A stretch of 64,000 nt of DNA from Escherichia phage PhaxI, in the sequence record JN673056. One strand, 5' to 3'. Of this stretch, positions 42,875-61,283 are shown one piece after another (the stretch's first letter is position 1; each line of letters begins with the position of its first letter). A program made the translations under genes and the position numbers. The notes beneath the pieces are model-generated. The model did no database searches and was not told the DNA's origin. It saw only the letters and a program-made list of their open reading frames with translations.

Positions 42875-43516
42875 ATGAAAACTTGTGAATTTTGCTCAAG
42901 GGATTTTGGGACCGTACAAGCATTTTGTTCTCATGTGCGACAGTGTAAACAAAATCCAGACAGAATAATAAGAAACAGGTCTGGGGTTAATAATCCCATG
43001 TATGGTAGGAAGGGTAGTAATCAATTCACCAAAGCTATAAAGTTGGGTTTGGAACCACCTAAAGTTAGGGAAGAAACTTCCCGCGCTATATCCGAAAAAT
43101 TAAAAGGAAAGGCGTGGACACAGGAAAGAAGAGAATCCTTTTCTATGAGGATGAAGGAAATCGTAAAAGAAAATCCTGATTCCTATAGTAGCCACAATGT
43201 GTGTGGTAGGTCAAAAAAGTTTGTGATAGACGGGGTTTTATTTCATTCTTCTTGGGAAGTGGTCTTTGCCAATTATTTGAATAAAAGGTCTTTGGCCTGG
43301 GTGAGAGAAGTAGAATCGATACCTTATATTTGGAAAGGTAAACAGCATTTATACTTTCCTGATTTTTACATACCGGAGTTGGATATGTATGTAGAAGTCA
43401 AGGGGTATGAAACGGAAAGAGATCATGCTAAATGGAGTTGCATTGATAATTTGATAATAATCAGGGAAACTGAGATAAATAAAATTATCTCTGGTGAAAT
43501 TATTTCGGGTCTGTAG
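42875..43516 (+). CDS. homing endonuclease-like protein (zinc finger, NUMOD-like motifs, PD-(D/E)xK-like C-terminus)
   Basis: ATG at 42875; CEFCSRDFG...CSHVRQC finger; NPMYGRKGSNQ and ETSRAISEKLKGK motifs; C-terminal FPDF...ELDMYVEVKG nuclease-like motif; stop overlaps the 5' end of tRNA-Met. Confidence 0.55.
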   Translation: MKTCEFCSRDFGTVQAFCSHVRQCKQNPDRIIRNRSGVNNPMYGRKGSNQFTKAIKLGLEPPKVREETSRAISEKLKGKAWTQERRESFSMRMKEIVKENPDSYSSHNVCGRSKKFVIDGVLFHSSWEVVFANYLNKRSLAWVREVESIPYIWKGKQHLYFPDFYIPELDMYVEVKGYETERDHAKWSCIDNLIIIRETEINKIISGEIISGL

Positions 43517-43583
43517 TTTAATAGGTTAGAACAACGGACTCATAATCCGTCAGGTCTCAGTTCAAATCTGGGTGGACCCACCA
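43507..43583 (+). tRNA. tRNA-Met (anticodon CAT); could equally be initiator or lysidine-modified Ile type
   Basis: Hand-folded cloverleaf: acceptor GGGTCTG/TGGACCC, D-stem GTTT/GAAC, anticodon stem ACGGA/TCCGT with loop CTCATAA, T-arm CTCAG-TTCAAAT-CTGGG, discriminator A, encoded CCA. Confidence 0.85.
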
Positions 43584-43689
43584 AACACAATGAGAGAAAC
43601 TGAAGTGAGAAAGCTCGGTTAAACGAGGGAGTAATTCAGGAGTATCTCACCACTAAATAAACCAGTTGTTCAATAAACAATTGGTGAGT

Positions 43690-44064: not shown

Positions 44065-44140
44065 GACGATGTAGTTCAGTCGGTAGAACGGTGGACTGTT
44101 AATCCATATGTCGCAGGTTCAAGTCCTGCCATCGTCGCCA
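44065..44140 (+). tRNA. tRNA-Asn (anticodon GTT)
   Basis: Perfect 7-bp acceptor GACGATG/CATCGTC; D-arm GTTC-AGTCGGTA-GAAC; anticodon loop CTGTTAA; T-arm GCAGG-TTCAAGT-CCTGC; discriminator G; encoded CCA. Confidence 0.9.
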
Positions 44141-44824: not shown

Positions 44825-44913
44825 GGAAGGTTGCCCGAGAGGTTTAAGGGACTCGACTGCTAATCGAGTGGGGCTTTTAGCCCCCGAAGGTTCGAATCCT
44901 TCACCTTCCGCCA
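44825..44913 (+). tRNA. tRNA-Ser (anticodon GCT), type II with long variable arm
   Basis: Perfect acceptor GGAAGGT/ACCTTCC; anticodon stem CTCGA/TCGAG with loop CTGCTAA; long variable arm GGGGCTTTTAGCCCCC; T-arm GAAGG-TTCGAAT-CCTTC; discriminator G; CCA. Confidence 0.9.
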
Positions 44914-45297: not shown

Positions 45298-45531
45298 ATG
45301 GCAACTGCTAAGATCACACCAAACGCAAGTACATGGACGCAAGTCTCAGACGGCACATCTTTGAAAACTCTTCAAGTGACTCACGGTTCTGTGTATCTGT
45401 GTGATAGCCCCAGCGCTCCAACGGGTAACAACGCGCATATCATATATCAAGGAAATATGGTCGTTTTAACCCCGCCGACGGTGGGATGGGTTAAGGCAAT
45501 TAATTCTGATGCGACGGTTATCGTTTCTTAA
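45298..45531 (+). CDS. hypothetical small beta-rich protein
   Basis: 77 aa; SD AAAGGAGG; TATAAT-like element upstream. Confidence 0.5.
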   Translation: MATAKITPNASTWTQVSDGTSLKTLQVTHGSVYLCDSPSAPTGNNAHIIYQGNMVVLTPPTVGWVKAINSDATVIVS

Positions 45532-45540
45532 GGAGGGAGT

Positions 45541-46059
45541 ATGGCCATTTTGACATCTCCCTATTTGGGGAATATGCTTCAGACCCATCGCATCAAAACA
45601 GAAGTCAGATTTTCCGGTTTGTCACAACTTCTAACTTCTGGGGCAACTGGAATAGATTTGTTAACTGTGTTGGATGGGAAGACTCCGAACCCTTCTTCTC
45701 CTACTGGTTTGGCTCCGTTCTTTAAATTATCAGATCACAAATTTCACGCGTTTCCTTATGATTCTATTCTTCCGGTGAAGGTCAATATCGTCGGTTCATG
45801 GTCTGGATCCACTTCAAACAGAACCATGATTGTTGACTTTGTTGGCTCTGTTGGGAACCAGTTATCAAGAAGTCGTGATGCTAGCGTACCGCCGCCGGAC
45901 ACCCTGTCTTTCATTACGTTCTTCAGTGTTGACAAGGATGGGAATCTGGCGACAAACGGGGCGCAAATCAAACTGTACTCTTATGGCGGTGACTTCACTA
46001 TTACTGAGGTCGTGTTGATTGCCGAGCAGGTTGTCCCACTCTATATGACCAGTATTTGA
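45541..46059 (+). CDS. hypothetical protein
   Basis: 172-aa ORF. Confidence 0.55.
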   Translation: MAILTSPYLGNMLQTHRIKTEVRFSGLSQLLTSGATGIDLLTVLDGKTPNPSSPTGLAPFFKLSDHKFHAFPYDSILPVKVNIVGSWSGSTSNRTMIVDFVGSVGNQLSRSRDASVPPPDTLSFITFFSVDKDGNLATNGAQIKLYSYGGDFTITEVVLIAEQVVPLYMTSI

Positions 46060-46130
46060 TTTGTTCAATGACAATAAGGGGTTTAAAATTTAACCGTTTA
46101 TAAACCCCTTCATTGATTTGAGGAAACACC

Positions 46131-46814
46131 ATGCGCAATGTAACAATCTGGGATTACAATGATGTTGTTTGTGATCTGCCTCCATTTGCTCGTCTGTACA
46201 CATATAAAGGCAACAAGCGCACTCTGAATGAGTTCTTGTATCCGGCTTACATTTACAGAGACGGGCACCTCGCACCGCGTTCCCTAGATGATACGGGCGT
46301 CTGCACCCCATTTGATCTGAACAAGAAAGGCCAAGCGGTGTTCATCGGTTATTCCAGCGAAGACGATATGGTCAACGGGCGGCGCGGCCTGTATATGGTA
46401 TTCAATTCATTTGAGCAAGCAGTGAATTGGATGTTCAAAAATGGATATGACTTTTATGGTGAAGAGAGTTCTACTGCTCGCCGCCGTAAAGTTAAGAACG
46501 TCGATTTCTACGCTGAGCGCAAGAAATATCTAGATATCGCTCATCAGTATGAGCAGTCCAAGAAATCTGTTTTAATCAAGCCGTGTGTTTCTGTGGCTGA
46601 AGAAGCGAGTGTTGTGGACAATTCCGATCTGAATCAGGCGATCAAATCTTTGAAGCCGACTCCACCGACTCCGCCAGCCAGTCGTGTTCTGAACGATCAG
46701 GGAGCGCCTGTTGGTGTGGATCCTGAACTTCCACCCATCCTTCAGTATCCTCCGAAGGTGAGCGACTCACGCAAATCGTTTTTCCGCCGCCTGATGGATT
46801 TTCTGACCAAGTAA
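46131..46814 (+). CDS. hypothetical protein
   Basis: 227-aa ORF with Pro-rich C-terminal region. Confidence 0.55.
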   Translation: MRNVTIWDYNDVVCDLPPFARLYTYKGNKRTLNEFLYPAYIYRDGHLAPRSLDDTGVCTPFDLNKKGQAVFIGYSSEDDMVNGRRGLYMVFNSFEQAVNWMFKNGYDFYGEESSTARRRKVKNVDFYAERKKYLDIAHQYEQSKKSVLIKPCVSVAEEASVVDNSDLNQAIKSLKPTPPTPPASRVLNDQGAPVGVDPELPPILQYPPKVSDSRKSFFRRLMDFLTK

Positions 46815-46883
46815 CCCGAGATTCTCCTTTTCTATACTCCTGTAGATACGCTATGATAAGCCAATGTCTACAGGAGAAATAGA

Positions 46884-48179
46884 ATGAACGAGAAAGCTCA
46901 GAAACTCTTAGAACACACCAAGCAGATGATAGAAGAAAATGCATCGCCTATCATCTTTGCCCCATACGTCCCTGTTGTCCTTATGGGTGATCGGAAAACA
47001 ATCTTCAATGCTCTCTCACTTGATAGAAATATCATCCATTGGGAAGACTATCTCTACAAACACACCCCGTGCGAACTCGTTGCCAACCCTGAAACTAATC
47101 AGCAGGTCTGGTTCAAACGTGAAGATTACTTCGCGCCGCTGTCTTGTTATATGAATGGTAAGCAGGGGATCAATGGTAGTAAATTGCGTCAGGCCATCTG
47201 GCTGATGGTTGAGCATTTAAAAGCCGGAGGCTCCCCAGACCTTATCCATGGTACAGTTGTTGGTAGTCCGCAGTCCCCTATGGCGACGGCAGTCTCTCGG
47301 CATTTCGGCGGCAAGACAACTACAGTCCTGGGCGCGACCAAACCAACCACCTGTATGAACCACGATATGGTTAAGATGAGCGCCTGGTTCGGCAGCGAAT
47401 TCAACTTTGTCGGTTCGGGTTACAACAGCACTATCCAGCCGCGCTGCAAGAAATTGATTGAGCATCAGAATCCAAAAGCATATTATCTAGAGTATGGGAT
47501 CACTCTGGATCATACGTTGCATTCTCCGGAGAGGATTGCAGGATTTCATATGCTGGGCGGCGAGCAGGTTGCTAACATTCCGGACCATATCACAGATCTG
47601 ATCATTCCTGCTGGTTCATGTAATTCTTGTACCAGCATTTTGACAGGTCTGGCAATGCACCCGAAACCGAATCTGAAAAATGTATATCTGATCGGGATTG
47701 GTCCCAACCGTCTGGACTTTATTGAAAGCCGTTTGCGTATTATTGAAACAGCTAATCTTCCGCACATAACGGATTTCACTCGTTGCTATCACGACACCCA
47801 TTATTATGTGTATGGTAAGAAGGATCTTCAGCATGCCTCTAAGAGCGTTTCGCTGGCTGGCCTCCTGATGGGTATCCGCGAGAAGGGAGAGCCGGAGATA
47901 ACGCTCCCACGCTTTGCAGTACACCATTGGGATTTGCATACAACGAATTGGGTTCGCTATAATGACCTGATGGATTACCAGTGGGGCGATATTGAGTTGC
48001 ATCCTCGCTATGAAGGCAAGGTCATGACCTGGATCCAACAGCATAAGCCAGAACTGCTCAACGAAAACGCTCTGTTCTGGATTGTTGGTAGCAAGCCGTA
48101 TATTGAGCCAATGAAGGCAGCATGCCCCGAATTGTCTATGCCGGAACAAGTTCCCGTGAACGAGTTTACCCCTGATTGA
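46884..48179 (+). CDS. PLP-dependent enzyme-like protein (tryptophan synthase beta-like fold), candidate DNA-modification enzyme
   Basis: 431 aa; GINGSKLRQA resembles the PLP-lysine motif of fold-type II enzymes; SD AGGAGAAA; function inferred. Confidence 0.45.
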   Translation: MNEKAQKLLEHTKQMIEENASPIIFAPYVPVVLMGDRKTIFNALSLDRNIIHWEDYLYKHTPCELVANPETNQQVWFKREDYFAPLSCYMNGKQGINGSKLRQAIWLMVEHLKAGGSPDLIHGTVVGSPQSPMATAVSRHFGGKTTTVLGATKPTTCMNHDMVKMSAWFGSEFNFVGSGYNSTIQPRCKKLIEHQNPKAYYLEYGITLDHTLHSPERIAGFHMLGGEQVANIPDHITDLIIPAGSCNSCTSILTGLAMHPKPNLKNVYLIGIGPNRLDFIESRLRIIETANLPHITDFTRCYHDTHYYVYGKKDLQHASKSVSLAGLLMGIREKGEPEITLPRFAVHHWDLHTTNWVRYNDLMDYQWGDIELHPRYEGKVMTWIQQHKPELLNENALFWIVGSKPYIEPMKAACPELSMPEQVPVNEFTPD

Positions 48180-48185
48180 TCCCTC

Positions 48186-48196
48186 CTAAATACCCC
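48186..48196 (+). promoter_or_regulatory. late-promoter-like motif CTAAATACCCC
   Basis: Exact CTAAATACCCC about 23 nt upstream of the ATG at 48219; part of inverted repeat ATACCCCA...TGGGGTAT. Confidence 0.45.
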
Positions 48197-48218
48197 ATAC
48201 GACCAGTGTGGGGTATCT

Positions 48219-48668
48219 ATGAAAACCTTTCTAGAATTTTATCGCGAATCAACGTTACCTGATTTTACGAATATCGTTTTGTATCATGGGTCTAATGTTG
48301 AATTCGATATATTTGATTTTGAAAAATTTGGCCAGACTGACTCTGGTACGATGGGTGCTGGATTTTACCTGACAGGGGATCCAGAAAAGGCACAGATCTA
48401 CGCAGAAAATGCCGTGCGCTATCGTCAATCTGGTGAACCTGTTGTCATGGCATTTCGTGTTAAGGCCAAGAAGACTCTTGTAATAGATTCCAACAATGTT
48501 TCGGTGTGGGAAAATAAAATGCGAGAGTTGGGGATAAAGCCTGGTAAGATACATGATAATGTGAAAGAACTTGTCAACAAAGGGTTCGATTCTATAGCCT
48601 CTATGAGTGCCAATAACGTTGAGGAAATGGTGGTGTTTAAGCCAGGGCTGGCGACCAGAGAAGCCTAA
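48219..48668 (+). CDS. hypothetical protein with ADP-ribosyltransferase-like motif arrangement (speculative)
   Basis: 149 aa; LYHGS ... GAGFYLT ... VEEMVVF spacing resembles H-Y-E class ADP-ribosyltransferases; CTAAATACCCC motif upstream. Confidence 0.35.
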   Translation: MKTFLEFYRESTLPDFTNIVLYHGSNVEFDIFDFEKFGQTDSGTMGAGFYLTGDPEKAQIYAENAVRYRQSGEPVVMAFRVKAKKTLVIDSNNVSVWENKMRELGIKPGKIHDNVKELVNKGFDSIASMSANNVEEMVVFKPGLATREA

Positions 48669-48703
48669 ATAGTCCAAAGCGGTTTATTCAAGAGGACATT
48701 ACC

Positions 48704-49162
48704 ATGCCAATTTCGAAATTATTTGAAGCGGATTCCCCAGCAGATATGCCTATCTGGACTGGTGTTCAAGACGGGACAACGATTGAATTCTTTGAGCGCG
48801 GGGAAACAGGCGCTGAAGAGATTTATGCTTCCGTACAAGGGACAGACGTCGTCCGCGCCGCCGTAGCTCTTGCTACATTTTTAGAGGACGCCCCGATTGA
48901 CGGTATCCCGTTTGAAGCCCATGTGGACCCAGAAGACCCGACGTCTATCATCATTACAGTCCAGGGTTCTGAATATACATCTTACAGTATTGAGCACGAT
49001 GAAGAAACAGGAGCGCTGTTTATAGCCACGGATCTTCAATTGGAAGATGACGAAATTGAATATCTGAAACAGAATGGTCGTCTTCCAGAGTACTCTGACG
49101 AAGAATTGGATTCAGCGTTTGACAACGTAGACGATGAAGACGACTTTTGGGATGGGAAATAA
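48704..49162 (+). CDS. highly acidic hypothetical protein
   Basis: 152 aa with Asp/Glu-rich C-terminus; SD AGAGGA. Confidence 0.5.
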   Translation: MPISKLFEADSPADMPIWTGVQDGTTIEFFERGETGAEEIYASVQGTDVVRAAVALATFLEDAPIDGIPFEAHVDPEDPTSIIITVQGSEYTSYSIEHDEETGALFIATDLQLEDDEIEYLKQNGRLPEYSDEELDSAFDNVDDEDDFWDGK

Positions 49163-49190
49163 ACAAAGGGGCATTAAGCCCCTTTGTTTT
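49161..49190. terminator. bidirectional hairpin terminator between convergent genes
   Basis: AAAGGGGC-ATTAA-GCCCCTTT hairpin followed by GTTTT. Confidence 0.55.
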
Positions 49191-49563
49191 AGATATCGTT
49201 TGTGTGTACTGTGAATCTCATTGTTACGACATCTGTTCTTTCATCCTTGTGTAATTCGAACTTCAAACCTTCCTTCAGAAGACTCGCCGCCAACAATGTT
49301 TTGAACTTTTCGACTTGCTTGTCTGTTGGGTATTTTTGAGACTTATATGCCTGTTGAAATGCTGTTAATATTTCGTCAAACCTGTTGCCACCAACAGCGT
49401 ACACCATGTCATCAATTTCAACTCCGCGATTTGCTTGGGAAACGAGTTGCTTCTTCATTTTGCAAACAAAGATATCAACGGCTTTTTCAACTATCCCCAT
49501 GGCTTCCCAAATCTGAGCCTGGTCAATCGTAGTCTGTAATTCTTGTGCGAAGTTTTTCATCAT
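49189..49563 (-). CDS. hypothetical protein
   Basis: 124-aa ORF. Confidence 0.5.
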   Translation of the reverse strand: MMKNFAQELQTTIDQAQIWEAMGIVEKAVDIFVCKMKKQLVSQANRGVEIDDMVYAVGGNRFDEILTAFQQAYKSQKYPTDKQVEKFKTLLAASLLKEGLKFELHKDERTDVVTMRFTVHTNDI

Positions 49564-50102
49564 TTCACCTTCCTCGTTGGATATTGGTTAAAGAGTTTGC
49601 CCAGCTTGGACACATTGATAATCGTCTGAGTCTTCCAGCGCTCGATCCCCTCTGGTGTAGTCACGGTTAGGATTGAATAACCCCATATATGGGAACCATT
49701 CAGCACAGCCGCGCTGTGCCCACCAATTTTGTCTTCTAGTTTACAAATGAAAGACTCATATTGCATCGCAGCGTTTCGACGTGCTTCTTTGACAAACAGA
49801 GCATGGCGCTCAGGATCAGCTTTGACAATATCCGGCTTCCCAGGTATGTAAGAAGGATTCACTGCCTGGGTCAAAGAACGGTAGAGCGCATGTTTTGATT
49901 TCATTCTTTGGTAATCTGGATCACCAAACTTGACACCAACCGAAGATGGCCACGGAGCGCACTTCTCGACGTCCCAGCCGTTGGATGCCAGATCGTCCAT
50001 TATGTTCTTGATGACTTTGTTCGCGTACTGCTCAGCAGCATTCTCAGCATCAACCAGCAGAGGCTCAACTGCGATACGGACAGGAGTTTTTGGCATATTC
50101 AT
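49560..50102 (-). CDS. hypothetical protein
   Basis: 180-aa ORF overlapping downstream gene by 4 nt. Confidence 0.5.
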   Translation of the reverse strand: MNMPKTPVRIAVEPLLVDAENAAEQYANKVIKNIMDDLASNGWDVEKCAPWPSSVGVKFGDPDYQRMKSKHALYRSLTQAVNPSYIPGKPDIVKADPERHALFVKEARRNAAMQYESFICKLEDKIGGHSAAVLNGSHIWGYSILTVTTPEGIERWKTQTIINVSKLGKLFNQYPTRKVK

Positions 50103-50150
50103 GATATAGTCCTTCAGTTCAAAGTAAGCCCCCGAAGGGGCTTTGTCATA

Positions 50151-50708
50151 TTAGAGGCGGGAATCCAACCATGCGTTCTTTTCATTCTGCCATTCCCAAG
50201 CGGCCTGACCACCAGCCATAATCACTTCCAGAGAAGGAGTATTGTCATCCTCGCCGCCGTGAAGATCTGGATCAAATCCATCATCTTCCGGATCATCTTC
50301 ACATTCGTTCTGATATGCGGAATATTCAATATAATGCGCTTCGGCTTCGCAATCCATGTCTCCCAGAGCAGTCTCAAGAGTCATTTTACCTTCGGCAATC
50401 AGCTCAGCCGTTGCGTCGTCCAGACCTGCGTCTTTCGCTTCAACAAAGAGTTCATGACGTTTCTGGAAGAGAAAGAATTGCATGGCGGCAGAACGTGAAT
50501 CAAAGAATTCTTGACGAGGAGCGGTGATATCACGCCCATCAATTTTACTTACCATCACGACACGAGAACCGTACTCAACCAGGAAGCGACCGCCTTTTAC
50601 GGGGTTGCTGCCGTCAACTGTGCCCAAAGTGGTGATTACACGGCCTTCTTCGGTGCCGAACAATACAGTTTTGCCGGATTTAGATTGAGCGATAATTTCG
50701 ATTGCCAT
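50151..50708 (-). CDS. hypothetical acidic protein
   Basis: 185 aa from ATG at 50708 with SD AAGGAAAT; GTTTAC-N17-TATACT element upstream. Confidence 0.5.
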   Translation of the reverse strand: MAIEIIAQSKSGKTVLFGTEEGRVITTLGTVDGSNPVKGGRFLVEYGSRVVMVSKIDGRDITAPRQEFFDSRSAAMQFFLFQKRHELFVEAKDAGLDDATAELIAEGKMTLETALGDMDCEAEAHYIEYSAYQNECEDDPEDDGFDPDLHGGEDDNTPSLEVIMAGGQAAWEWQNEKNAWLDSRL

Positions 50709-50756
50709 GATGTATTTCCTTCTCTTCAAATTGTTGTTTGTTCGTACTACAATTAG

Positions 50757-50785
50757 AAGTATACGCCAGTTATTGAAGAAGTAAA
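50757..50785 (-). promoter_or_regulatory. sigma70/T4-early-like promoter GTTTAC-N17-TATACT
   Basis: Same architecture and same TTCTTCAATAA spacer core as 4756-4784; upstream of the ATG at 50708. Confidence 0.4.
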
Positions 50786-50803
50786 CTTTATTCAATAAAT
50801 ATT

Positions 50804-51016
50804 TTAATAAATTTTGAACTCTGCTCCTTTGTACACTGCTGTCCCTCGTTCTATGAGGCCGTCGGGGACAACCACCTTTGTGGGCCATCCACCGTCCGGT
50901 GCCTTGACAGTCAGGCGTGTCTTATGATCACCCAGCTGAATCTGTTCGTAAATCCTTCCTCTTACTATCGTCGCCCCGCCTTGGGTGACGAGCAATCTCT
51001 TGTTTACCACTTTCAT
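50804..51016 (-). CDS. hypothetical small protein
   Basis: 70-aa ORF with ATG start. Confidence 0.3.
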   Translation of the reverse strand: MKVVNKRLLVTQGGATIVRGRIYEQIQLGDHKTRLTVKAPDGGWPTKVVVPDGLIERGTAVYKGAEFKIY

Positions 51017-51057
51017 TCCTTAACACCAAAAGAAAGGGGAGTTTCCTCCCCTCTAAC

Positions 51058-51690
51058 TTATTTCTTCAGATCAGGCCACGCACCAGAGGTCGCAGTAGAC
51101 CCAGCTGGGGGAGCAGACTCAAGATCGGGAGAACCCGACTGAGTAACAACAGTGGGATCTTTGTTAACCACTTTGACCCCAAACTGCTTGAGAGCATCCA
51201 CAGCTTGCGCCTTCCGGCTGTTGCTTTTGTAATGGTTATAACCCTTGATACCGAATGATGCACTAATTGCTGTCAATAACGAATAGGTATACCATTCAGG
51301 TGCGGTATCGAGCGCCTGGAGGCCGCCGATTACTGCTTTGATGAAATCCCCTTTATGATACTCATCAGGGAACAGAATTAGTTCCACAACCGGAGCAGTC
51401 ATGACGAGGATAGCGGGTACGGCCAACACGATAGTCCAGAATTCGTCTTTCCAAGACCCGCCGACTTCGGTGATCTTAGACAGCTCCCAATCTGAGGAGG
51501 ACTTGATAGCCTCTAGCTTGACATCGTGTTTGGCCTGAACAACTTCCCGCTTGTATTGGATCAAATCAGTCCCGAGGTTCCAGAGTTGCTTGAGCGCCCC
51601 TGGGATCATACTCACAAAGGGGATTGCCATAATAAACTCCTTGGTCATTGAACGTTCCTCGGCTAAATTACGGGGACGTGCTAACGGCAC
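51058..51690 (-). CDS. membrane protein (start uncertain)
   Basis: 210-aa ORF with hydrophobic segments. Confidence 0.45.
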   Translation of the reverse strand: MPLARPRNLAEERSMTKEFIMAIPFVSMIPGALKQLWNLGTDLIQYKREVVQAKHDVKLEAIKSSSDWELSKITEVGGSWKDEFWTIVLAVPAILVMTAPVVELILFPDEYHKGDFIKAVIGGLQALDTAPEWYTYSLLTAISASFGIKGYNHYKSNSRKAQAVDALKQFGVKVVNKDPTVVTQSGSPDLESAPPAGSTATSGAWPDLKK

Positions 51691-51709
51691 GGTTAACCGG
51701 AGACAAACA

Positions 51710-54706
51710 ATGACTGTTTTCTATACGAACGTTGCCCGACAGGGTAACGACCTTCTGATTCGTATTGCAGACGACAACGGCAATCGCCGTATGTTGCGTA
51801 AGAAATTCGAACCCACCTTGTATTTACCCACAGCCGATTATTCCAAAGTTGAAAAGATTGGCCTCCTCAATGAACCGTTGGTGTCTAAAAAATTTGCGTC
51901 AATGCGTGACGCCGACAACTATCTGGAGGAATATAAGGAGGTCGAAGGCGCTGCCGTTTACGGACAAACGGATTATGCATATCAATTCATAGCGCATAGT
52001 TTTCCTGGGATGATTACCCCCGATTACTCAAATATTCACATCGCCAACGTGGATATCGAAGTTTTCTCGGCTGGGTGGCGCGATGGAGAAATGACTAAAG
52101 GCCCATTTCCTCACGCGACGATTGAATCCCACACGTTTAAGGGGAGTGAGGCGCGTGTTCGCCGATTCCATAAGCAAGTGTTGGCCAACCATGATTTCGT
52201 TCGAGAGCATTTCCCAGGTTCCTTTATTTCCAACAACGTGACTGACCAGTTCCCTATCATTGATAGTAATGGTAAGATCACACAGAACATGAATGCCGCC
52301 TTCCCTATTACGCTCATCCAGCTTCAAGACATGAACACCAACAAGTTCTATGTCTGGGGTATGCCGTGTTCTAAGGATCGCCATAAATTCAAATATGATC
52401 CAAATGATGAAGAGATAGGTGGTCTTGAGGTTGAATACAAAGAATACACGACTGAACAAGAACTTCTTCGCGCCTTCTTAGATTATTGGTCTGAACGTCA
52501 ATTTGATGGTTGGACTGGCTGGAACATCGAAACGTTTGATAGCCCGTACTTGGTTGAACGTATTACGCAGGTTCTCGGCGAAACCCAGGCAGAGCGCCTC
52601 AGTCCTTGGGGCAAACTCAAGAAACGTTTCATCAAAGACCGTAAAGGCGACGTGACTTCTTATCAATTCGTGGGTTGTCCTATGATGGACTACATGCAAG
52701 TTTACAAGAAACACACGTACACAACCCGCGAAAAATACTCACTGGATTGGATCGCTTATTGTGAACTCGGTGAGAAGAAGTTGGATTATAGTGAAAGCAA
52801 GTCATTGTATGATCTATATTTTAATGATTATTGCAAACACACCCGATATGGTATCAAAGACGTCAAACTCGTGTGGCGTTTAGAACAAAAGCTGCGTTTG
52901 ATACAGCTGATGTTCGTATTGGCGTATCGCACCAAATCTAACTATGAAGACGGTCTTGGGACTGTAGCACCATGGCTGGCGATGTGTTACTATCGTCTTT
53001 ATGAAAAGGGGATTGTCCCTAAAATACAGCGTGTGTATGATGGTCCAACGGACTTTGAAGGCGCATATGTCATGGAGGTTGCACCAGGGATATATTTCTG
53101 GGTATTCTCTGAGGACTTAAACTCCCTGTATCCCCACATCATACAGCAATACAACCTTGGTCCTGAGACTATCGTATCTGACAAGCACACACGTCGCGAT
53201 ATCATTGAGTCCATGTGTGAGGAATTAACCAAAGCGATGAATGATATGACAACGCCTATGAACAAGCGCCGTCATCTCAAAAATCTTCACGACAAGCTGC
53301 AGCGTGCTATTGATGAACGCATACAAGTTGTTGATGAATTGGTCGCGCTGGGTGAATTCCATTTTGAAACATTACGTCGATATAACGTTTCGTTTACCCC
53401 GAACGTTCAGTTCTTCAGTAATGAGAAGATGTCTTTCCTTTCCGAAATTATGCGAGGCATATACGCTGACCGTAAAGGAGAGAAAGCAACTGGCCTGAAG
53501 TATGAGCAATGGGCTGGTTGGTGTAAGGAAATGTCTAAAGGTGATTTCCACCTTGAATCTGCCATGAAGTCTCGTTTCTACGATCCTGAATGGTATGAAG
53601 AACACAAGCATATCGACCTTGATCACCTGACTGAAGTCATGCACAAGTGGGAAGATTTGGGAGTTGCCCAAGATACGTTACAACAAGGTCTGAAGATCTT
53701 GATGAACGCAGGATATGGTGCAATTTCTAACGTCTGGTTTAAAGAATACTTCAACATCAACATCGCTGAAGCAATTACCACTTCCGGCCAGCTGATCAAT
53801 AAATGGAACAAACGCCACACTGATGATTATCTGAACAAACTTTGTGGTACTACTGGTCAGGATTTTGTTATCGCAGGTGATACAGACTCCAACTACATTT
53901 GCATTGAACGCCTGGTCAAGCAATTGTGGCCTGAAGAAAAGGACCATCACAAACTCGTTGATAACATTGACCAATGGATCAAAGAGAATTACCAGCCAAA
54001 AACCAGTGAATGGGCGCAGTTGTTGTGTAATACCATGAACGGGTTTGAGCAGCGCATGGTCTGGGAACGTGAGGTCATCGCATCGTCTGCTGTATGGCGA
54101 GCCAAGAAGATGTATTGCATGGCAGTATACGATAGCGAAGGCATCAAGTATGAGAAACCAAAGATCAAATTCAAAGGTCTGGAAGCGCGTAAATCTACAA
54201 CGCCGGAATGGTGTCGTGAGCGTCTTGTCAAATGTTATGAGAAAGTCCTGCTCGGTACTGAGGCGGAGGTTCAGGAATTAATCGCTGGATACAAAAAGGA
54301 ATATATGGAACTCACCGTGGATGATATCGCTCAGGCATCTGGTGTGAGCGATATTGAGAAGTGGTTAGACGCGAACGGGAATTACATCAGCGGTACGCAC
54401 TTTGCTGCCAAGGCTTGTATTATGTACAACAAGCTGATCGATAAGCACGAAGATCTCGGTCTTCCGCCTATCGAATCCGGTGATAAGGTTAAAATCATCA
54501 ACCTGAAACCTGGCAATCCTGTGGGGAATGATCGCATAGCCTTCCCTGACTTCCTTCCTCCAGAATTGGGATTGGATAAATGGGTGGATTACCACACCAC
54601 GTTTGAAAAGACCTTTATAGAGCCAATTCAGTCTATCTTGGATGTGGTTGGTTGGTCTCATAAACGTCGAGTTAATCTGTTGTCCATGATGGGCAAGAAA
54701 GGTTGA
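51710..54706 (+). CDS. gp43: DNA polymerase, family B, T4 gp43-like
   Basis: 998 aa from ATG at 51710 with SD GGAG; N-terminus MTVFYTNVARQGNDLLIRIADDNGNRRM...KKFASMRDADNYL parallels T4 gp43 MKEFYISIETVGNNIVERYIDENGKER...QKFPSMKDARDWM. Confidence 0.9.
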   Translation: MTVFYTNVARQGNDLLIRIADDNGNRRMLRKKFEPTLYLPTADYSKVEKIGLLNEPLVSKKFASMRDADNYLEEYKEVEGAAVYGQTDYAYQFIAHSFPGMITPDYSNIHIANVDIEVFSAGWRDGEMTKGPFPHATIESHTFKGSEARVRRFHKQVLANHDFVREHFPGSFISNNVTDQFPIIDSNGKITQNMNAAFPITLIQLQDMNTNKFYVWGMPCSKDRHKFKYDPNDEEIGGLEVEYKEYTTEQELLRAFLDYWSERQFDGWTGWNIETFDSPYLVERITQVLGETQAERLSPWGKLKKRFIKDRKGDVTSYQFVGCPMMDYMQVYKKHTYTTREKYSLDWIAYCELGEKKLDYSESKSLYDLYFNDYCKHTRYGIKDVKLVWRLEQKLRLIQLMFVLAYRTKSNYEDGLGTVAPWLAMCYYRLYEKGIVPKIQRVYDGPTDFEGAYVMEVAPGIYFWVFSEDLNSLYPHIIQQYNLGPETIVSDKHTRRDIIESMCEELTKAMNDMTTPMNKRRHLKNLHDKLQRAIDERIQVVDELVALGEFHFETLRRYNVSFTPNVQFFSNEKMSFLSEIMRGIYADRKGEKATGLKYEQWAGWCKEMSKGDFHLESAMKSRFYDPEWYEEHKHIDLDHLTEVMHKWEDLGVAQDTLQQGLKILMNAGYGAISNVWFKEYFNINIAEAITTSGQLINKWNKRHTDDYLNKLCGTTGQDFVIAGDTDSNYICIERLVKQLWPEEKDHHKLVDNIDQWIKENYQPKTSEWAQLLCNTMNGFEQRMVWEREVIASSAVWRAKKMYCMAVYDSEGIKYEKPKIKFKGLEARKSTTPEWCRERLVKCYEKVLLGTEAEVQELIAGYKKEYMELTVDDIAQASGVSDIEKWLDANGNYISGTHFAAKACIMYNKLIDKHEDLGLPPIESGDKVKIINLKPGNPVGNDRIAFPDFLPPELGLDKWVDYHTTFEKTFIEPIQSILDVVGWSHKRRVNLLSMMGKKG

Positions 54707-54766
54707 TTCAATAAACCAAAGGGGGATATAATTCCCCCTGTTATCCCTTTGACAACAGGTATTGTT

Positions 54767-55108
54767 ATGAAACTCAATAAGATTCTTCTGGTGTGTGCTC
54801 TGGCTTTCTCTACCACTGCATGCTCTACCCTTCTGGACGTTGCGTCTACTGTTGACCTCGATGCGCCGACGTTCACCAATCAGCAAGCGGTGAATAAGAT
54901 GGAAGACACCATCAAAGCACATGCAGCTTTGGACAACACCACTCCTGGTCCGTTGCAAACTGTTTGCAATTATGATGATTCCATCCAGGAAGATGAAACC
55001 TATCACTGCACCACTTACGTGAAGGAATCTTCTGTGGTTCTGTATGCAGATTGCACAGAGAGCATGCACGCAACTGGTTATGATCAAGTGGAGAAGTCTG
55101 ATGAATAA
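54767..55108 (+). CDS. putative secreted/lipoprotein
   Basis: MKLNKILLVCALAFSTTACS signal-like N-terminus from ATG at 54767. Confidence 0.45.
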   Translation: MKLNKILLVCALAFSTTACSTLLDVASTVDLDAPTFTNQQAVNKMEDTIKAHAALDNTTPGPLQTVCNYDDSIQEDETYHCTTYVKESSVVLYADCTESMHATGYDQVEKSDE

Positions 55109-55883
55109 TCATGTTGGTCTGTATGATGCCAATTCTAAAATCGGTGGAATGTATCGTATCCTGGTAGACGTAGACTTGACTTTGGTTGATAGCCTCTCCC
55201 CTTGGGTGGATTGGTTTAATATTTCCAATTCAAAAGCTGCTGCGGAAAACATGGGTTGTCACGACTACCCATCTGAATTTCAACCAATCACCAAAGAGTG
55301 CTATATGTCACACGCTGGTGATCTGGCGATCCTCATGCGGGAACGCGCTCACCCAGCATGGTTGACACGCCGTGTGTTTGTTGCTGGTCAATGGATGGAT
55401 TCACCTACAGGACGTGATCCTATGGATTGGTGGCGCATGCCGGACCTGTATGCCAAGATGAACCCGCTTCCAGGCGCTTACGAGTTCCTGGTGAATCTGA
55501 AGAAGATCCTACTCGAAGACTTTGAAAATGTTGAATTGATCGCAGTATCTAAGTGTGAGCCAGAACACGAGCGCAGCAAGCGCCAGTTTGTCTATGACAA
55601 GTTCCCTGGCATCTTCAACGGGTTTGTCAGCACCGACGAAAAGCATCTTTTGGCAGGTGATGTTTTAATTGATGATAACCCGAAATACGTTGAACCCTGT
55701 GCGATGAACAATATTTTTGTCATCTTTGTTCCTCAGGGAAATTATGAAAAACTGGATCTTTCGAACTCGGAAGATATGCTTTATATTAAACCAGTAGAAG
55801 GCCAGAACCACTTCGACTTCCTGAACCGCAATATTGTCGAAGTGGTGAATCGCCTGATTGGCCATTATCAATACGTCCGTTGA
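55101..55883 (+). CDS. HAD-superfamily phosphatase-like protein
   Basis: ATG at 55101 overlapping upstream stop; YRILVDVDLTLVD contains the HAD DxDxT motif. Confidence 0.5.
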   Translation: MNNHVGLYDANSKIGGMYRILVDVDLTLVDSLSPWVDWFNISNSKAAAENMGCHDYPSEFQPITKECYMSHAGDLAILMRERAHPAWLTRRVFVAGQWMDSPTGRDPMDWWRMPDLYAKMNPLPGAYEFLVNLKKILLEDFENVELIAVSKCEPEHERSKRQFVYDKFPGIFNGFVSTDEKHLLAGDVLIDDNPKYVEPCAMNNIFVIFVPQGNYEKLDLSNSEDMLYIKPVEGQNHFDFLNRNIVEVVNRLIGHYQYVR

Positions 55884-56196
55884 GGAGGACATCGTGCAAG
55901 AACAATCCAAGTTTGGGAACCCAGACAAGCGTTCAGGTGATAGCGATATGGATGGCGTTATTATCCATGTGAACAACTTCATTCGTAAACAAACCACACC
56001 CACTTCCGTTGGTGCGGCGCTGGAGTTAAAGCGTGTTCTGATAGAGAACGGTATGGCACCAGATGACGATGAAATTTTCTATAACTTTGAAGACCAGTAT
56101 AAAGTGAAGTTTGTAGAAAACGAACGTCCACAGGTTGCTGTTTTCTGGTCTCCCTGGTTGGGCGGTGTGAGCTGGCGTATTGAGGAAGATGCATAA
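55858..56196 (+). CDS. hypothetical protein
   Basis: 112-aa ORF; start uncertain. Confidence 0.35.
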   Translation: MAIINTSVEEDIVQEQSKFGNPDKRSGDSDMDGVIIHVNNFIRKQTTPTSVGAALELKRVLIENGMAPDDDEIFYNFEDQYKVKFVENERPQVAVFWSPWLGGVSWRIEEDA

Positions 56197-57101
56197 TGGC
56201 TAAAATAATTGTAGTGAAAGGAACATCTGGCACGGGTAAAGGCACCCGTGTTGTTCAGTTCATCGAATGGCTCCGCACTAAGCTGGAGCCTACTGAACTC
56301 ACCTACACCATTGGTGACAAGACGCGCCCATTCGGCCTGAAATTCGAAGAGCTGAAGTTAATCTTCGTTGGCCAGTATACTGTGTCCAACAAATCCGGTC
56401 TGGCTTCCTGGACTTCCATGGATGCTATTCATGCTGCCACAGGCTCGGGTGATATCGCCCGTGATCTGGTCAAAGGCTGGCTGGCTCAGGGTTACACTTT
56501 GGTGTGCGAGGGTGAACCCCTCATGCTATCGGATAAATGGCGTCCTGAATGGATGTTCAAGAACTATCCGATTGAATCTCTGGCGTTGCTTTATTTTGCA
56601 TACCCAGACCGCTATCAGTATGATGCACGCATCCGTGGTCGCTCTGGTAAGGAAGCAGGGGACTCCGGCTGGTCACGCAACGAATCTTACTCCAAGGAGT
56701 TTGAGAAGTCGAAGACTGAAATGCTGGTGCTGGGTTGGGAAGTGGTGGTCAATGACTACAGCGGGCAAGACGTGTTGTATCGTCAATCGCCTACAAACAC
56801 TCAAGAATTCAAAACAGGAAATGATAGCGAATTAGCCATGATGCCGTTTGATGCACCTTTGTGGGTGATTGGCAACGCTATTCATCATCAAATGCGTGGT
56901 GAGTTTCACGCCATGGGTCTGGACATCAAAGATTTCTACGGATTCTGTGAAACTGACCCAATGACGCGTGAAGTCGGTGGGGATGATCCTCTAGCGCATC
57001 GAGTCCCTGAGAAGGCGACCAAATCTAAAACCAAGGCGAGCGCCAAGGGAGAGGTAACAAAGTCCTCTGTATCCCTTCTCGGCCTGTTGAGTAAGGGTTA
57101 G
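56196..57101 (+). CDS. P-loop kinase-like protein, candidate DNA/nucleotide kinase
   Basis: 301 aa; N-terminal Walker A VVKGTSGTGKGT; SD GAGGAAGA. Confidence 0.5.
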   Translation: MAKIIVVKGTSGTGKGTRVVQFIEWLRTKLEPTELTYTIGDKTRPFGLKFEELKLIFVGQYTVSNKSGLASWTSMDAIHAATGSGDIARDLVKGWLAQGYTLVCEGEPLMLSDKWRPEWMFKNYPIESLALLYFAYPDRYQYDARIRGRSGKEAGDSGWSRNESYSKEFEKSKTEMLVLGWEVVVNDYSGQDVLYRQSPTNTQEFKTGNDSELAMMPFDAPLWVIGNAIHHQMRGEFHAMGLDIKDFYGFCETDPMTREVGGDDPLAHRVPEKATKSKTKASAKGEVTKSSVSLLGLLSKG

Positions 57102-57103
57102 AA

Positions 57104-57307
57104 ATGAAACAGATGTCTAAATATTTTGTGTTCGTCGGATTGGTGATGTGTATCACAGCTGTGCTTGTCGGTGTCATGAAATATTTGGGCATCGTTGAGT
57201 TGGATTCAACCGAAATATTGAACGTTTACGCGTTATATTATTTGGGGGGTGCTATCTTATTAACGCCTTTCGTCTATAACATAATTCAGAGTTTCAAAAG
57301 GAATTAA
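57104..57307 (+). CDS. small membrane protein
   Basis: 67 aa, two hydrophobic helices. Confidence 0.4.
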   Translation: MKQMSKYFVFVGLVMCITAVLVGVMKYLGIVELDSTEILNVYALYYLGGAILLTPFVYNIIQSFKRN

Positions 57308-57308
57308 A

Positions 57309-57695
57309 ATGAAAATCCTCATTCCACGCAACGTTGTCGCTGTTGCTATTGATTACCGTGGTGATGCGAAGATGATTAACGCTGTCCGTTATTATCCGGA
57401 ACAGAATAAAATCGTCCCACAATTTCAACTGAATACCAATCCTTCTTCTAAGGATTTCGGTTCTTGGCGTCAAGTGGGTTTGGCTCGTACTCAGGTCAAT
57501 GCCCAGCATTTTATTTCCGAAAAGACGAAAACCGCCAAGCAAATTTGGTGGGTGACGAATGATCGTCGTTTCCTGCCTATCTGGTCTCTGGGACAGCCCG
57601 TAGTAAGCCCCGAAGAAATTCAGCTGGCTCCCGAAGCTGAGCCTGAAGTTGTTTCTCCTGTAGAGGAAGTGAAAGATGAAAATCAAGCATGTTGA
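57309..57695 (+). CDS. hypothetical protein
   Basis: 128-aa ORF. Confidence 0.45.
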   Translation: MKILIPRNVVAVAIDYRGDAKMINAVRYYPEQNKIVPQFQLNTNPSSKDFGSWRQVGLARTQVNAQHFISEKTKTAKQIWWVTNDRRFLPIWSLGQPVVSPEEIQLAPEAEPEVVSPVEEVKDENQAC

Positions 57696-57861
57696 TTTTA
57701 TCTTCATGATGCTGATGTTCGTTATCTTTACGGTTTCGCTGGTCGGCGTCATGGTCACAGAAGGGGTGCAACAGCGCCCATTCTTGGTGATCTGTCCAGT
57801 ATCGATCGCCACTTTCTTCTATCTGGCGTTCCGTGTTGAACTCGGGAGTAAAATCGGATGA
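57676..57861 (+). CDS. small membrane protein
   Basis: 61 aa, hydrophobic. Confidence 0.35.
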   Translation: MKIKHVDFIFMMLMFVIFTVSLVGVMVTEGVQQRPFLVICPVSIATFFYLAFRVELGSKIG

Positions 57862-59093
57862 TACACATTTCTAAAATGCCGCAGGGGTATAAAGCCCCTG
57901 AAAAATGGAAATACCCGATTGATCTGGCAGTAGATTATCGTAAGCCAGAAAATCGCATGTACCTGCTCAAGGCATGGGTGGAGGCGCTATCCTACACTGA
58001 AGAGCATAACCAGCAAGTCCGTCTGATGGATTATGCCATCGAGGTTACAGAAGGCATCACACAGCTCGAGAAGATCGAGCGCAAGATTTGGATGGCCTTT
58101 TTGTGGGGTTGTTGCTATAATGGGATTGGACCATGGACAATTTACAGTGAATTTCCTGTACCCCCACAATCTCCGAAAGAGTTTCAGCGATTTTCTGATT
58201 GGTATAACCTGAACTTTGATCGTATGCGCTTCGATACAGATTGTCGTTATCGTAAGTCGAAGATGATTCCGTGCGTTCAGTCCTATATCGATTGGTTGGG
58301 TGGTAAAACCCAAATGGATTCTTTTCGTTGGATGTTGGAATGCACTACCAAGGAAGACCAGTTCACCGAACTGTGGAATACGGCGATGTCATGGAAATAC
58401 TTTGGCCGCCTGAGCGCATGGAACTTCCTGGAAGCCCTGAACATGGTCTTCGGTAACATATGGGATATAGACGTCCCTGGCTTCATGTTGCGTGACCGCG
58501 ATGGCAGCGAGTCCAACCGCAACGGCGCGGCATTCTTGTCAAACCGTGACGACTGGGTGACCAAGCACGGGAAGAAAAAGATCAACGGTTGTCCTATTAC
58601 AGACGAAGAATGTGATATACTCGAAACCGACCTTGAGAAAGCATTTCAGGAATGCGTTGAAGAGTTCGGCCACATCACGTTTATCAATCGTCTGAACTTT
58701 GAGACCTCCGGTGCTTGTTGGCTGAAGAAATTCTTCCGACTGAAGAATACCCGTTACATCGGGTGGGACGCCGAGCGTACATGGGACGAGATCGATTATA
58801 TGGAGCGTATTTGGCCTGAATACTCCTGTGCGCCTCTCTGGGAAGCCCGTTCCCTCTGGCTACCAGATACCCTGTTGTGCGAAAAAGCTCCTACAGGGCA
58901 CGTTCCTGGCGTCCAGAAGTGGAAGATGCCTGTGTTCTTTGAGACGGGTGTTCCTCTACATATATGGCACCTGCAGCAGGGTACGCGTTGGGAACCATCT
59001 GAGGTTTACACTAATCTGAAAATGCCCGTCCGAAAGATAGAGGACAATCCGAAGTCGACCAGTGTAAACCTCATGTCTTTGTTGAAGCGCTGA
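57858..59093 (+). CDS. hypothetical protein (411 aa), candidate DNA base-modification transferase
   Basis: Large Trp/Cys-rich ORF in the same block as the kinase and PLP enzyme; SD GGGAG; function is inference only. Confidence 0.5.
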   Translation: MIHISKMPQGYKAPEKWKYPIDLAVDYRKPENRMYLLKAWVEALSYTEEHNQQVRLMDYAIEVTEGITQLEKIERKIWMAFLWGCCYNGIGPWTIYSEFPVPPQSPKEFQRFSDWYNLNFDRMRFDTDCRYRKSKMIPCVQSYIDWLGGKTQMDSFRWMLECTTKEDQFTELWNTAMSWKYFGRLSAWNFLEALNMVFGNIWDIDVPGFMLRDRDGSESNRNGAAFLSNRDDWVTKHGKKKINGCPITDEECDILETDLEKAFQECVEEFGHITFINRLNFETSGACWLKKFFRLKNTRYIGWDAERTWDEIDYMERIWPEYSCAPLWEARSLWLPDTLLCEKAPTGHVPGVQKWKMPVFFETGVPLHIWHLQQGTRWEPSEVYTNLKMPVRKIEDNPKSTSVNLMSLLKR

Positions 59094-59322: not shown

Positions 59323-59365
59323 AAAGGGGAATGGGTTATTATTAGCCCGTTCCCCTTTCTTTTTG
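59323..59365 (+). terminator. rho-independent terminator
   Basis: AAAGGGGAATGGG...CCCGTTCCCCTTT hairpin followed by CTTTCTTTTT. Confidence 0.55.
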
Positions 59366-59794: not shown

Positions 59795-60177
59795 CGCAGT
59801 CAGGATACAAACAATATTTGTACGATCTGTTCATGAAAGAAACAGACGGCGCATTACATCCTAAGAAAGCGACTATTGTTAAATTGCATTCTGAAGGTGA
59901 TTTGTCTATAGCATATATCCGAAAAGAACTCGATTTGATGGGAATCGAATACGAAGACCACATCACGGATACACGTGCTTTAAAAAGAGCAACAGCAATC
60001 GTTCTTCACACCGTTGCAACAATTATGCATCGCCACCATGTTTCTTTTGACGATGCAATAACTCCACAGTATCATGAAGAACGCTGGGAATTGCTCAAAT
60101 TGAACGGGGCGCACAGTTCTCACAAAAATCAACTCCTTGGTATGACGAAGGAACAACTCGTGGATGGTGTGTTATGA
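59791..60177 (+). CDS. hypothetical protein
   Basis: 128-aa ORF overlapping neighbours by 4 nt. Confidence 0.45.
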   Translation: MTQSGYKQYLYDLFMKETDGALHPKKATIVKLHSEGDLSIAYIRKELDLMGIEYEDHITDTRALKRATAIVLHTVATIMHRHHVSFDDAITPQYHEERWELLKLNGAHSSHKNQLLGMTKEQLVDGVL

Positions 60178-61283
60178 TTTACCTTCTGTTTGTGGTTCCT
60201 GTAATTTTGGCCATCTTGTTTGTGATATATCACCGCAAGACTCATGAGCCAAAGGAGACTTTGATCGCCACGGCCATTGTTATCGTATTGTCTTGCCTTA
60301 TCCAGTCGGGATTATATGCTGCTTTCTCCCTTGGTAGTTCTGGGGACGTGGAAATTTTGAATGGATATGTAACTGATAAGCAACGGAATAAGGTGGGTTG
60401 TGAACATTCTTATGAATGTATGTGCTATTACACAACATCTTGCTCTGGTTCAGGAAATAACCGATCTTGTACACAAACGCGTCATTGCAGCACATGCTAT
60501 GAGCACTCTTATGACGTTGATTGGGACGTATTAACAACCGTCGGTGATCTGAGCATTGACCGTATTGATCGTCAGGGTACTACAGAGCCTCCGCGTTGGG
60601 CACAAGTTAAAATCGGGGAACCTGCGGCACGTGAACATTCATATATGAATTATGTGCTGGGCAACAAAGATTCATTATTCTCTAAATCTGACCAGCAATT
60701 CGCTGAGAATTTCAAAGAGCATATCCCTTCATATCCAAGGGTGTATGATTATTACCGAGTAACCCGTGTTCTGAATATGTCAGGGATGGACATTCCTGTT
60801 GATTACTGGAATGATTATCTGAACGACACTCTGAAAACATTAGGTGCTTCACGTCAGGTTAATATCGTTTGGGTTGTGACTTCTGGCCAGCCTGTTGAAT
60901 ATTTTCAGGGACTTCTATATGCATGGTCCGGCGGTAAAAAGAACGATGTTATTGTAGTCACCGATATTTCAAAGGATATGAAAATTAATTGGGGTAAGTC
61001 TACGTCATTTGCCGACGGCATGAACAACATGGAACTCCATTCTCGTAACGGACTTTCATTGACTGGGAAACCAATGGGTATATCCGTGTTCCAAGAAGTT
61101 GCGGTCAATATCAGTAAGGGATACAACCGAGTTGAGATGAAGGAAATGGAATATCTGAAATGGCGAGATCTTAAAACTTGGGAAGTGATTATCGTCGTGC
61201 TGTTTGGATGTATCCCTTTTACCGCAGTTTTCATATTAGGCCGCATGCAGTACAATGGTCGAACTTATAAACGTTTGTTTTAA
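60174..61283 (+). CDS. membrane protein with Cys-rich extracytoplasmic region
   Basis: 369 aa; N- and C-terminal transmembrane helices; cluster CEHSYECMCYYTTSCSGSGNNRSCTQTRHCSTC. Confidence 0.5.
   Translation: MIYLLFVVPVILAILFVIYHRKTHEPKETLIATAIVIVLSCLIQSGLYAAFSLGSSGDVEILNGYVTDKQRNKVGCEHSYECMCYYTTSCSGSGNNRSCTQTRHCSTCYEHSYDVDWDVLTTVGDLSIDRIDRQGTTEPPRWAQVKIGEPAAREHSYMNYVLGNKDSLFSKSDQQFAENFKEHIPSYPRVYDYYRVTRVLNMSGMDIPVDYWNDYLNDTLKTLGASRQVNIVWVVTSGQPVEYFQGLLYAWSGGKKNDVIVVTDISKDMKINWGKSTSFADGMNNMELHSRNGLSLTGKPMGISVFQEVAVNISKGYNRVEMKEMEYLKWRDLKTWEVIIVVLFGCIPFTAVFILGRMQYNGRTYKRLF

Follow-up and report, generated by a model that had tools for sequence, protein, structure and literature searches.

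The window analysed here is a stretch of 64,000 nucleotides from Escherichia phage PhaxI (sequence record JN673056), and its region 46884-59093 contains four open reading frames (ORFs) which flank the gene of a family-B DNA polymerase (51710-54706). Listed by position, these encode an enzyme dependent on pyridoxal phosphate (PLP) at 46884-48179, a HAD phosphatase at 55101-55883, a P-loop kinase at 56196-57101 and a protein of 411 amino acids at 57858-59093. An initial annotation of this DNA had pointed out all four, and all were indeed found on the plus strand where it had placed them, each with a family or orthologue match too strong to be due to chance. It had further proposed that the combination is the one expected for DNA hypermodification as described for Vi01-like phages. 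This proposal was borne out for the kinase, the 411-residue protein and the PLP enzyme, which are 86, 91 and 94% identical, respectively, to gp243, gp247 and gp226 of phage ViI; the HAD protein is linked to such a system by gene context only.

The kinase, transferase and PLP enzyme genes

To place the region among known phages, it was compared by megablast to phage genomes. A match was obtained with 276 records, nearly all of them Ackermannviridae, with hosts in Salmonella, Klebsiella, Escherichia, Dickeya, Serratia and Shigella; the top DNA match was Salmonella phage vB_STmST313_KE27, a Kuttervirus (97.5% identity, 99% query cover). By blastn, window positions 38712-64000 are colinear with positions 133002-157061 of Vi01 (phage ViI, NC_015296) at 80-95% identity and with few small insertions, and the ORFs of window positions 1-46000 keep the structural-gene order of Vi01 from ca. 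95 kb on. Judged by these matching records and by the colinearity with Vi01, the window represents the ∼64 kb at the right-hand side of a ViI-like phage (Kuttervirus, Ackermannviridae). The gp numbers of ViI were mapped to Vi01 loci by the orf notes in the Vi01 record and the YP accessions in the table of Lee et al.: gp226 corresponds to Vi01_182 (note orf00226, YP_004327553), gp243 to Vi01_196 (note orf00243, YP_004327565) and gp247 to Vi01_199 (note orf00247, YP_004327568). The three corresponding genes of the window are ordered around the polymerase gene as they are in ViI.

The description of 56196-57101 as a P-loop kinase was right, and its product of 301 amino acids can be named more precisely as the orthologue of ViI gp243, a 5-hydroxymethyl-2'-deoxyuridine (5-hmdU) DNA kinase (5-HMUDK, "kinase 2"). 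It matched the Pfam family HMUD2 (PF18747) with an E-value of 1.9e-150 and a score of 500.5 bits (cut-off 25), residues 1-300 being aligned to positions 1-298 of the 298 in the profile, and it is 86% identical to the syntenic Vi01_196. Its Walker A motif, GTSGTGKGT at residues 9-17, is identical in ViI gp243, a protein which, like gp67, phosphorylates 5-hmdU in DNA (PMC8989533). The identity and the synteny suggest that the product of 56196-57101 phosphorylates hmdU in DNA at its 5-hydroxymethyl group, with ATP as the donor, yielding 5-phosphomethyl-2'-deoxyuridine (5-PmdU). The kinase also matched positions 203-497 of phrog_15209 (labelled "endonuclease", E 1.3e-76), and therefore a 5-HMUDK domain appears to be fused to an N-terminal nuclease-like domain in some phages.

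The 411-residue protein, initially assigned to no known family, is an amino acid:DNA transferase (ADDT, clade 2 of the aGPT-Pplase enzymes) and the orthologue of ViI gp247. It matched Pfam PF18724 with an E-value of 1.9e-57 and 195.1 bits (cut-off 26.2). The protein is 91% identical to Vi01_199 over all 411 amino acids, with substitutions at 39 positions that cluster at residues 106-180 and 255-268, and 94.5% identical to its counterpart in CBA120. A four-way alignment was made of the window protein, ViI gp247, the homologue of Vibrio phage D533 and gp46 of Pseudomonas phage PaMx11; the last was too distant for phmmer, and was taken from its genome record and aligned directly. Residues E282, T283 and C287 were invariant in this alignment. 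They correspond to Glu243, Thr244 and Cys247 of the PaMx11 enzyme, the metal-binding and nucleophile site in its crystal structure (PMC11472151). A single-sequence search of the PDB yielded nothing useful for the transferase. Purified ViI gp247 joins L-serine to 5-PmdU via the side-chain oxygen, and alanine mutants in its conserved Cys or Glu are inactive (PMC8989533). The degree of identity to gp247 and to the CBA120 protein suggests that the product of 57858-59093 likewise swaps the phosphate of 5-PmdU for the side-chain oxygen of L-serine, to give 5-O-serinylthymidine (O-SerT).

The third gene, 46884-48179, encodes 431 amino acids, and its labelling as a PLP-dependent enzyme of fold type II was correct: the protein is a predicted PALP-like decarboxylase, 94% identical over 410 amino acids to its ViI orthologue Vi01_182 (gp226), which was assigned to the PALP-type fold by Lee et al. 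with Phyre2 (1j0a, 98.9% confidence; PMC8989533). From residue 37 on it matched phrog_3650 with an E-value of 5.9e-236. Lysine K100, found within the motif GSKLRQ, is the equivalent of K92 of ViI gp226, the residue predicted to form the internal aldimine (Schiff base), and gp226 carries out the decarboxylation that gives the mature base (PMC8989533). By orthology, the product of 46884-48179 is predicted to decarboxylate O-SerT in DNA to 5-(2-aminoethoxy)methyl-2'-deoxyuridine (5-NeOmdU). An AGGAG sequence stands 7 nt upstream of the ATG at 46884. A start at M34 was also considered, as residue 37 or so is where the PHROG profile and most of the homologues set in, and was rejected because no comparable AGGAG precedes M34. 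In most relatives the homologous part begins with residue 25, 31 or 38, and the full N-terminus is common to few phages (BRM 13313, Gloob and Magnus); the 5' end of the gene (46884-46995) looks like a recombination boundary.

The predicted pathway and its product

Taken together, the 86-94% identity, the synteny and the conserved catalytic residues allow the kinase, transferase and decarboxylase steps to be read from the biochemistry of ViI, and the region very probably encodes three enzymes of a ViI-type thymidine hypermodification pathway that makes 5-NeOmdU. As the catalytic residues are those of ViI, the product is expected to be that of ViI as well. In the ViI system, a mixture of five lysates (gp67, gp160, gp226, gp243 and gp247) converted 5-hmdU DNA to 5-(2-aminoethoxy)methyl-deoxyuridine, and a nucleoside of 301 Da replaces ∼40% of the thymidine in ViI, CBA120, CBA6 and the ViI-like Vibrio phage 1.255.O (PMC5889632).

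Going by what has been published on ViI and CBA120, the pathway would begin before replication, with the synthesis of 5-hydroxymethyl-deoxyuridine monophosphate by a thymidylate-synthase homologue of the phage (a deoxyuridine monophosphate, or dUMP, hydroxymethyltransferase, the gene of which lies outside the window); this would be converted to the triphosphate and then incorporated by the family-B polymerase encoded at 51710-54706. In duplex DNA, the kinase would phosphorylate the hydroxymethyl group with the gamma-phosphate of ATP, forming 5-PmdU. Cys287 of the transferase would attack C6, the phosphate would be expelled and an exocyclic methylene formed, to which the side-chain hydroxyl of L-serine would add to give O-SerT. 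The PLP enzyme, acting through K100, would make a Schiff base to the free alpha-amine of the attached serine and remove CO2, leaving the aminoethoxy group. From the same literature, ∼40% of the thymidines of this phage are predicted to be present as 5-NeOmdU, which would protect its DNA from many restriction endonucleases. Many type II restriction enzymes are ineffective on DNA of the 5-NeOmdU type (PMC6449724, PMC11721090), and such resistance bears on sequencing and cloning of the DNA and on the use of this phage against Salmonella.

Several points weigh against this assignment. We infer both the activities and the product in this phage from orthology. The match of the PLP enzyme to Pfam PF00291 (PALP; E 3.7e-7, 30.2 bits) falls under the gathering cut-off of 35, a single-sequence search of the PDB returned no sequence match for it, and its N-terminal ∼24-37 residues diverge from those of ViI and of most Kutterviruses; residues 106-180 of the transferase also differ from ViI. 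Equivalents of gp67 (the second kinase) and gp160 (a clade-1 transferase paralogue) were searched for in the window and none was found, nor did the window match three proteins of Vibrio phage D533, its thymidylate-synthase homologue, HMUDK_hel and dUTPase_2. The five ViI proteins with which 5-NeOmdU could be reconstituted do not include the HAD protein (PMC5889632), and by tblastn no homologue of it was detected either in M6-like Pseudomonas phages or in those mycobacteriophages which have ADDT-like and PLP-like genes. As gp67, gp160 and the thymidylate-synthase homologue are missing from the window, the cluster constitutes only part of the pathway. In Vi01, gp160 is located upstream of the segment that is colinear with the window, at 87.4-88.6 kb, and the genes for gp67, gp160 and the dUMP hydroxymethyltransferase should be found in another part of the genome.

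A different final base might be made by the same three enzyme families, for example by the transfer of another amino acid, and the concentration of the differences from gp247 in two segments of the transferase could be taken as a sign of this, as could the use of glycine or putrescine by clade-2 transferases elsewhere (PMC8989533). Such an outcome is nevertheless very unlikely: CBA120, the transferase of which is 94.5% identical to that of the window, carries the 301-Da nucleoside as ViI does, the same nucleoside is present in Vibrio phage 1.255.O, and not only the catalytic motif is kept but also the PLP decarboxylase, which needs a free alpha-amine. It is less credible still, to the point of being nearly negligible, that the genes encode ordinary enzymes of small-molecule metabolism (guanylate kinase, threonine ammonia-lyase, deoxyribonucleotidase) unrelated to DNA modification. 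GenBank labels such as "guanylate kinase" and "putative threonine ammonia lyase" do say so, and PHROGs calls the kinase family "guanylate kinase", but the deposited labels stem from distant P-loop or PALP similarity, whereas the HMUD2 profile is matched over its full length with 500 bits and the orthologues act on DNA (PMC8989533).

The 5-NeOmdU system of ViI is already known (Lee et al. 2018, PNAS; 2021, NAR; PMC5889632, PMC8989533), and nothing in the window departs from it as published. Gene order around the polymerase, sequence identity and catalytic residues are all alike; the differences are minor, and consist of the divergent N-terminal ∼24 amino acids of the PLP enzyme, an insert of ∼230 bp with an ORF for a membrane protein of 61 amino acids, and an extra ORF on the minus strand at 49189-49563. 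The value of the assignment lies in annotation, as in most deposited Kuttervirus genomes these genes still go under "hypothetical protein", "guanylate kinase" or "threonine ammonia lyase" despite their biochemically defined orthologues. According to a recent review, conservation of the modification genes extends across the family (PMC11721090).

Two further systems share part of this chemistry. Pseudomonas phage M6 makes 5-(2-aminoethyl)-2'-deoxyuridine (5-NedU) with a kinase (gp54), a glycine:DNA transferase (gp51), a radical S-adenosylmethionine (SAM) isomerase (gp53) and a PLP decarboxylase (gp52). It has in common with the pathway proposed here the 5-PmdU intermediate, amino-acid transfer by a clade-2 aGPT-Pplase and a final decarboxylation by a PLP enzyme; it differs in the use of glycine, in the N-C linkage and in the need for the radical-SAM isomerase before decarboxylation (PMC8989533). 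No radical-SAM gene would take part here, because serine is linked through oxygen and keeps a free alpha-amine (PMC8989533). In PaMx11, the glycinyltransferase gp46 (PUGT), the structure of which was cited above, aligns with the window transferase at the Glu-Thr...Cys motif and at several further invariant columns, but is only 19% identical to it, is shorter (292 versus 411 amino acids) and uses glycine, not serine. The PaMx11 pathway to 5-acetylaminomethyl-2'-deoxyuridine (5-AcNmdU) ends with a flavin adenine dinucleotide (FAD) oxidase and an acetyltransferase, whereas here a PLP decarboxylase stands at the end. The logic of a kinase followed by a clade-2 transferase is common to all three.

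The order PLP enzyme, polymerase, NT5C-type protein (the HAD protein of the window), kinase and transferase recurs in Vibrio phage D533 at ∼50% amino-acid identity, with 49% for the transferase and ∼30% for the HAD protein. The D533 segment (OZ195763.1, 113189-132370), a compact form of the system, runs from the PLP orthologue through a 600-amino-acid "sigma factor" ORF, the polymerase, the NT5C-like gene, a small ORF and a homing endonuclease to the HMUD2 kinase, the ADDT transferase, two ORFs and an HMUDK_hel kinase; past further ORFs come the thymidylate-synthase homologue, a deoxynucleoside monophosphate (dNMP) kinase and the dUTPase_2 protein, the whole set falling within ∼20 kb. Most genes of the hypermodification region are labelled hypothetical in the D533 record. 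An ORF of 369 amino acids in the window (60174-61283) was considered as a counterpart of the HMUDK_hel kinase that D533 has two genes past its transferase, and was found to be unrelated to it and to belong to no Pfam family. PLP-like (labelled "carboxylate deaminase") and ADDT-like genes, with 26-29% identity, were found in Mycobacterium phages Bane2 (KF279413.1, 1900-2739) and Vincenzo (NC_028934.1, 1508-2047); in mycobacteriophage cluster-mates the two occupy adjacent positions near the left genome end. These matches hint at a related DNA-modification module in actinophages.

The NT5C-type nucleotidase gene

The labelling of 55101-55883 as a HAD phosphatase was likewise accurate. The product matched Pfam PF06941 (NT5C) with an E-value of 8.3e-8 and 32.8 bits, over the cut-off of 24.8, and is 88% identical to Vi01_194; the gene encodes an NT5C-type HAD 5'(3')-deoxyribonucleotidase homologue. 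The ORF extends over 55044-55883, and the internal ATG at 55101 gives 260 amino acids, as annotated for Vi01_194. Weak PDB matches were obtained to the deoxyribonucleotidases 3bwv and 4mwo, and the HAD core with motifs I and IV is that of NT5C deoxyribonucleotidases such as human mitochondrial dNT-2 (PDB 1mh9/4mwo) and the bacterial 3bwv. Motif I (D23-V-D25-L-T27) and motif IV (D191-D192, in IDD 190-192) are invariant between the window, ViI and Vibrio phage D533; compared to the Vibrio phage homologue, the Kuttervirus protein has ∼45 extra residues in the cap region. Going by its family membership, the enzyme is most likely a dNMP phosphatase that would act on the nucleotide pool (for example on dUMP or on thymidine monophosphate, dTMP) before replication, and not on DNA.

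The HAD protein is regarded here as a context neighbour and not as an established member of the pathway. The chemistry of the transferase expels phosphate as the leaving group and includes no phosphatase step (PMC8989533), a nucleotidase is mentioned in neither of the papers of Lee et al. (PMC5889632, PMC8989533), and a search of the literature on HAD proteins or deoxyribonucleotidases in hmdU phages found nothing relevant. The NT5C-type gene is nonetheless conserved between polymerase and kinase from Salmonella to Vibrio phages, and its role is the only loose end of a locus that otherwise poses no new biological question. One possible, though doubtful, explanation is that it is a dedicated accessory of hypermodification, either a dTMP/dUMP nucleotidase that sets the ratio of hmdU to thymidine or a phosphatase of 5-PmdU in DNA that erases kinase marks; if so, either activity could help to explain why only ∼40% of the thymidines become 5-NeOmdU.

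The second of these activities, taken separately as a post-replicative reversal of the kinase mark that sets a partial (∼40%) or sequence-selective pattern, is the more improbable. It could be argued from the catalytic motifs, which are intact, and from the sharing of one tightly packed string, between the polymerase gene and the kinase gene, with kinase and transferase. The retention of the order polymerase, NT5C, kinase and transferase in D533, at the low identities given above, points in the same direction, as do the record counts of HAD, ADDT and PLP homologues, which are nearly equal in each genus of the Ackermannviridae and amount to a near-perfect co-occurrence. Synteny kept within one viral lineage is, however, weak evidence of function. 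The best-matching family is one of mononucleotide 5'(3')-deoxyribonucleotidases, and both the reconstitution of 5-NeOmdU by five ViI proteins that do not include the HAD protein and the failure of tblastn to detect homologues in other hmdU-hypermodifying lineages speak against such a role. A nucleotidase acting on the nucleotide pool thus remains the preferred reading.

Gene organisation and genome setting

The polymerase gene is the first of the string that holds the kinase and transferase genes. Its ORF spans 51551-54706 on the plus strand, with a probable start at the ATG at 51710 which gives 998 amino acids, as in its Vi01 orthologue (Vi01_190), and the product matched the Pfam families DNA_pol_B_exo1 (E 6.8e-17) and DNA_pol_B (E 2e-14). 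From the stop of the polymerase gene (54706) to that of the transferase gene (59093), neighbouring genes overlap or are separated by gaps of at most 42 nt. All the small ORFs in this string are on the plus strand. The first (54767-55108; phrog_3748, E 1.4e-60) is the orthologue of Vi01_193, is labelled a lipoprotein in some records, and overlaps the HAD start by 8 nt with its stop. The next, at 55894-56196 (Vi01_195 orthologue; phrog_3911, E 4.2e-50), has GAGGAGG upstream of its GTG start, and its stop overlaps the ATG of the kinase gene. Between the kinase and the transferase genes lie three more, 57104-57307, 57309-57695 and 57676-57861 (phrog_4514, phrog_4163 and phrog_7943, respectively), with successive gaps or overlaps of 2, 1, -20 and -4 nt. 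The last of these encodes the 61-amino-acid membrane protein, is absent from Vi01 and stands immediately upstream of the transferase gene; the ∼230 bp at 57626-57855 have no match in Vi01 DNA. A strong terminator-like hairpin on the plus strand (59323-59358), with 16 pairs followed by a T run, closes the string.

The gene of the PLP enzyme belongs to a separate plus-strand unit (45298-49162) with a bidirectional hairpin (49165-49185) at its end; between this unit and the polymerase-to-transferase string lies a block of minus-strand genes (49189-51690). Directly 3' of the PLP decarboxylase gene, and in the same transcription unit, is a gene of 149 amino acids (48219-48668) with an ART-PolyVal ADP-ribosyltransferase domain (PF18760, 42.2 bits versus a cut-off of 31.2), which has a conserved counterpart in Vi01 (Vi01_183). 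An Sf6-type tail-needle-knob domain (PF16532, E 1.9e-28) is present in the 172-amino-acid product of 45541-46059, a gene that stands among non-structural plus-strand genes and precedes the PLP decarboxylase by two genes.

The region is a mosaic, in that the top protein matches fall in different phages: the HAD protein is 100% identical in SPHG3, the transferase is 100% identical in SJ3, and the PLP enzyme is 97.5% identical in BRM 13313. No record in the phage collection was identical over all of 46884-59093. Apart from 57626-57855, two other segments of the window have no counterpart in Vi01 DNA. One is 49189-49563 on the minus strand, an ORF of 124 amino acids (phrog_6044) that is additional as compared to Vi01, and the other is 42838-43653, which holds, next to a tRNA-Met gene, an ORF of 217 amino acids with weak endonuclease-I/DUF7487 matches.

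Three tRNA genes were found on the plus strand, Met-CAT (43507-43583), Asn-GTT (44065-44140) and Ser-GCT (44825-44913). They are located within 40.5-45.3 kb, among tiny ORFs only, where minus-strand structural genes give way to plus-strand genes, and the matching stretch of Vi01 carries no annotated features. Inside the minus-strand structural block, two ORFs run on the plus strand. The first, 12793-13665 (290 amino acids), has a weak GIY-YIG match (E 0.003), and Vi01 has at this place ∼56 bp between a GIY-YIG endonuclease gene and the tail sheath gene. The second, 19916-20626 (236 amino acids), contains CapR, T5orf172 and MUG113 domains, and Vi01 has an ORF of 213 nt there. Both are probably mobile nuclease insertions.

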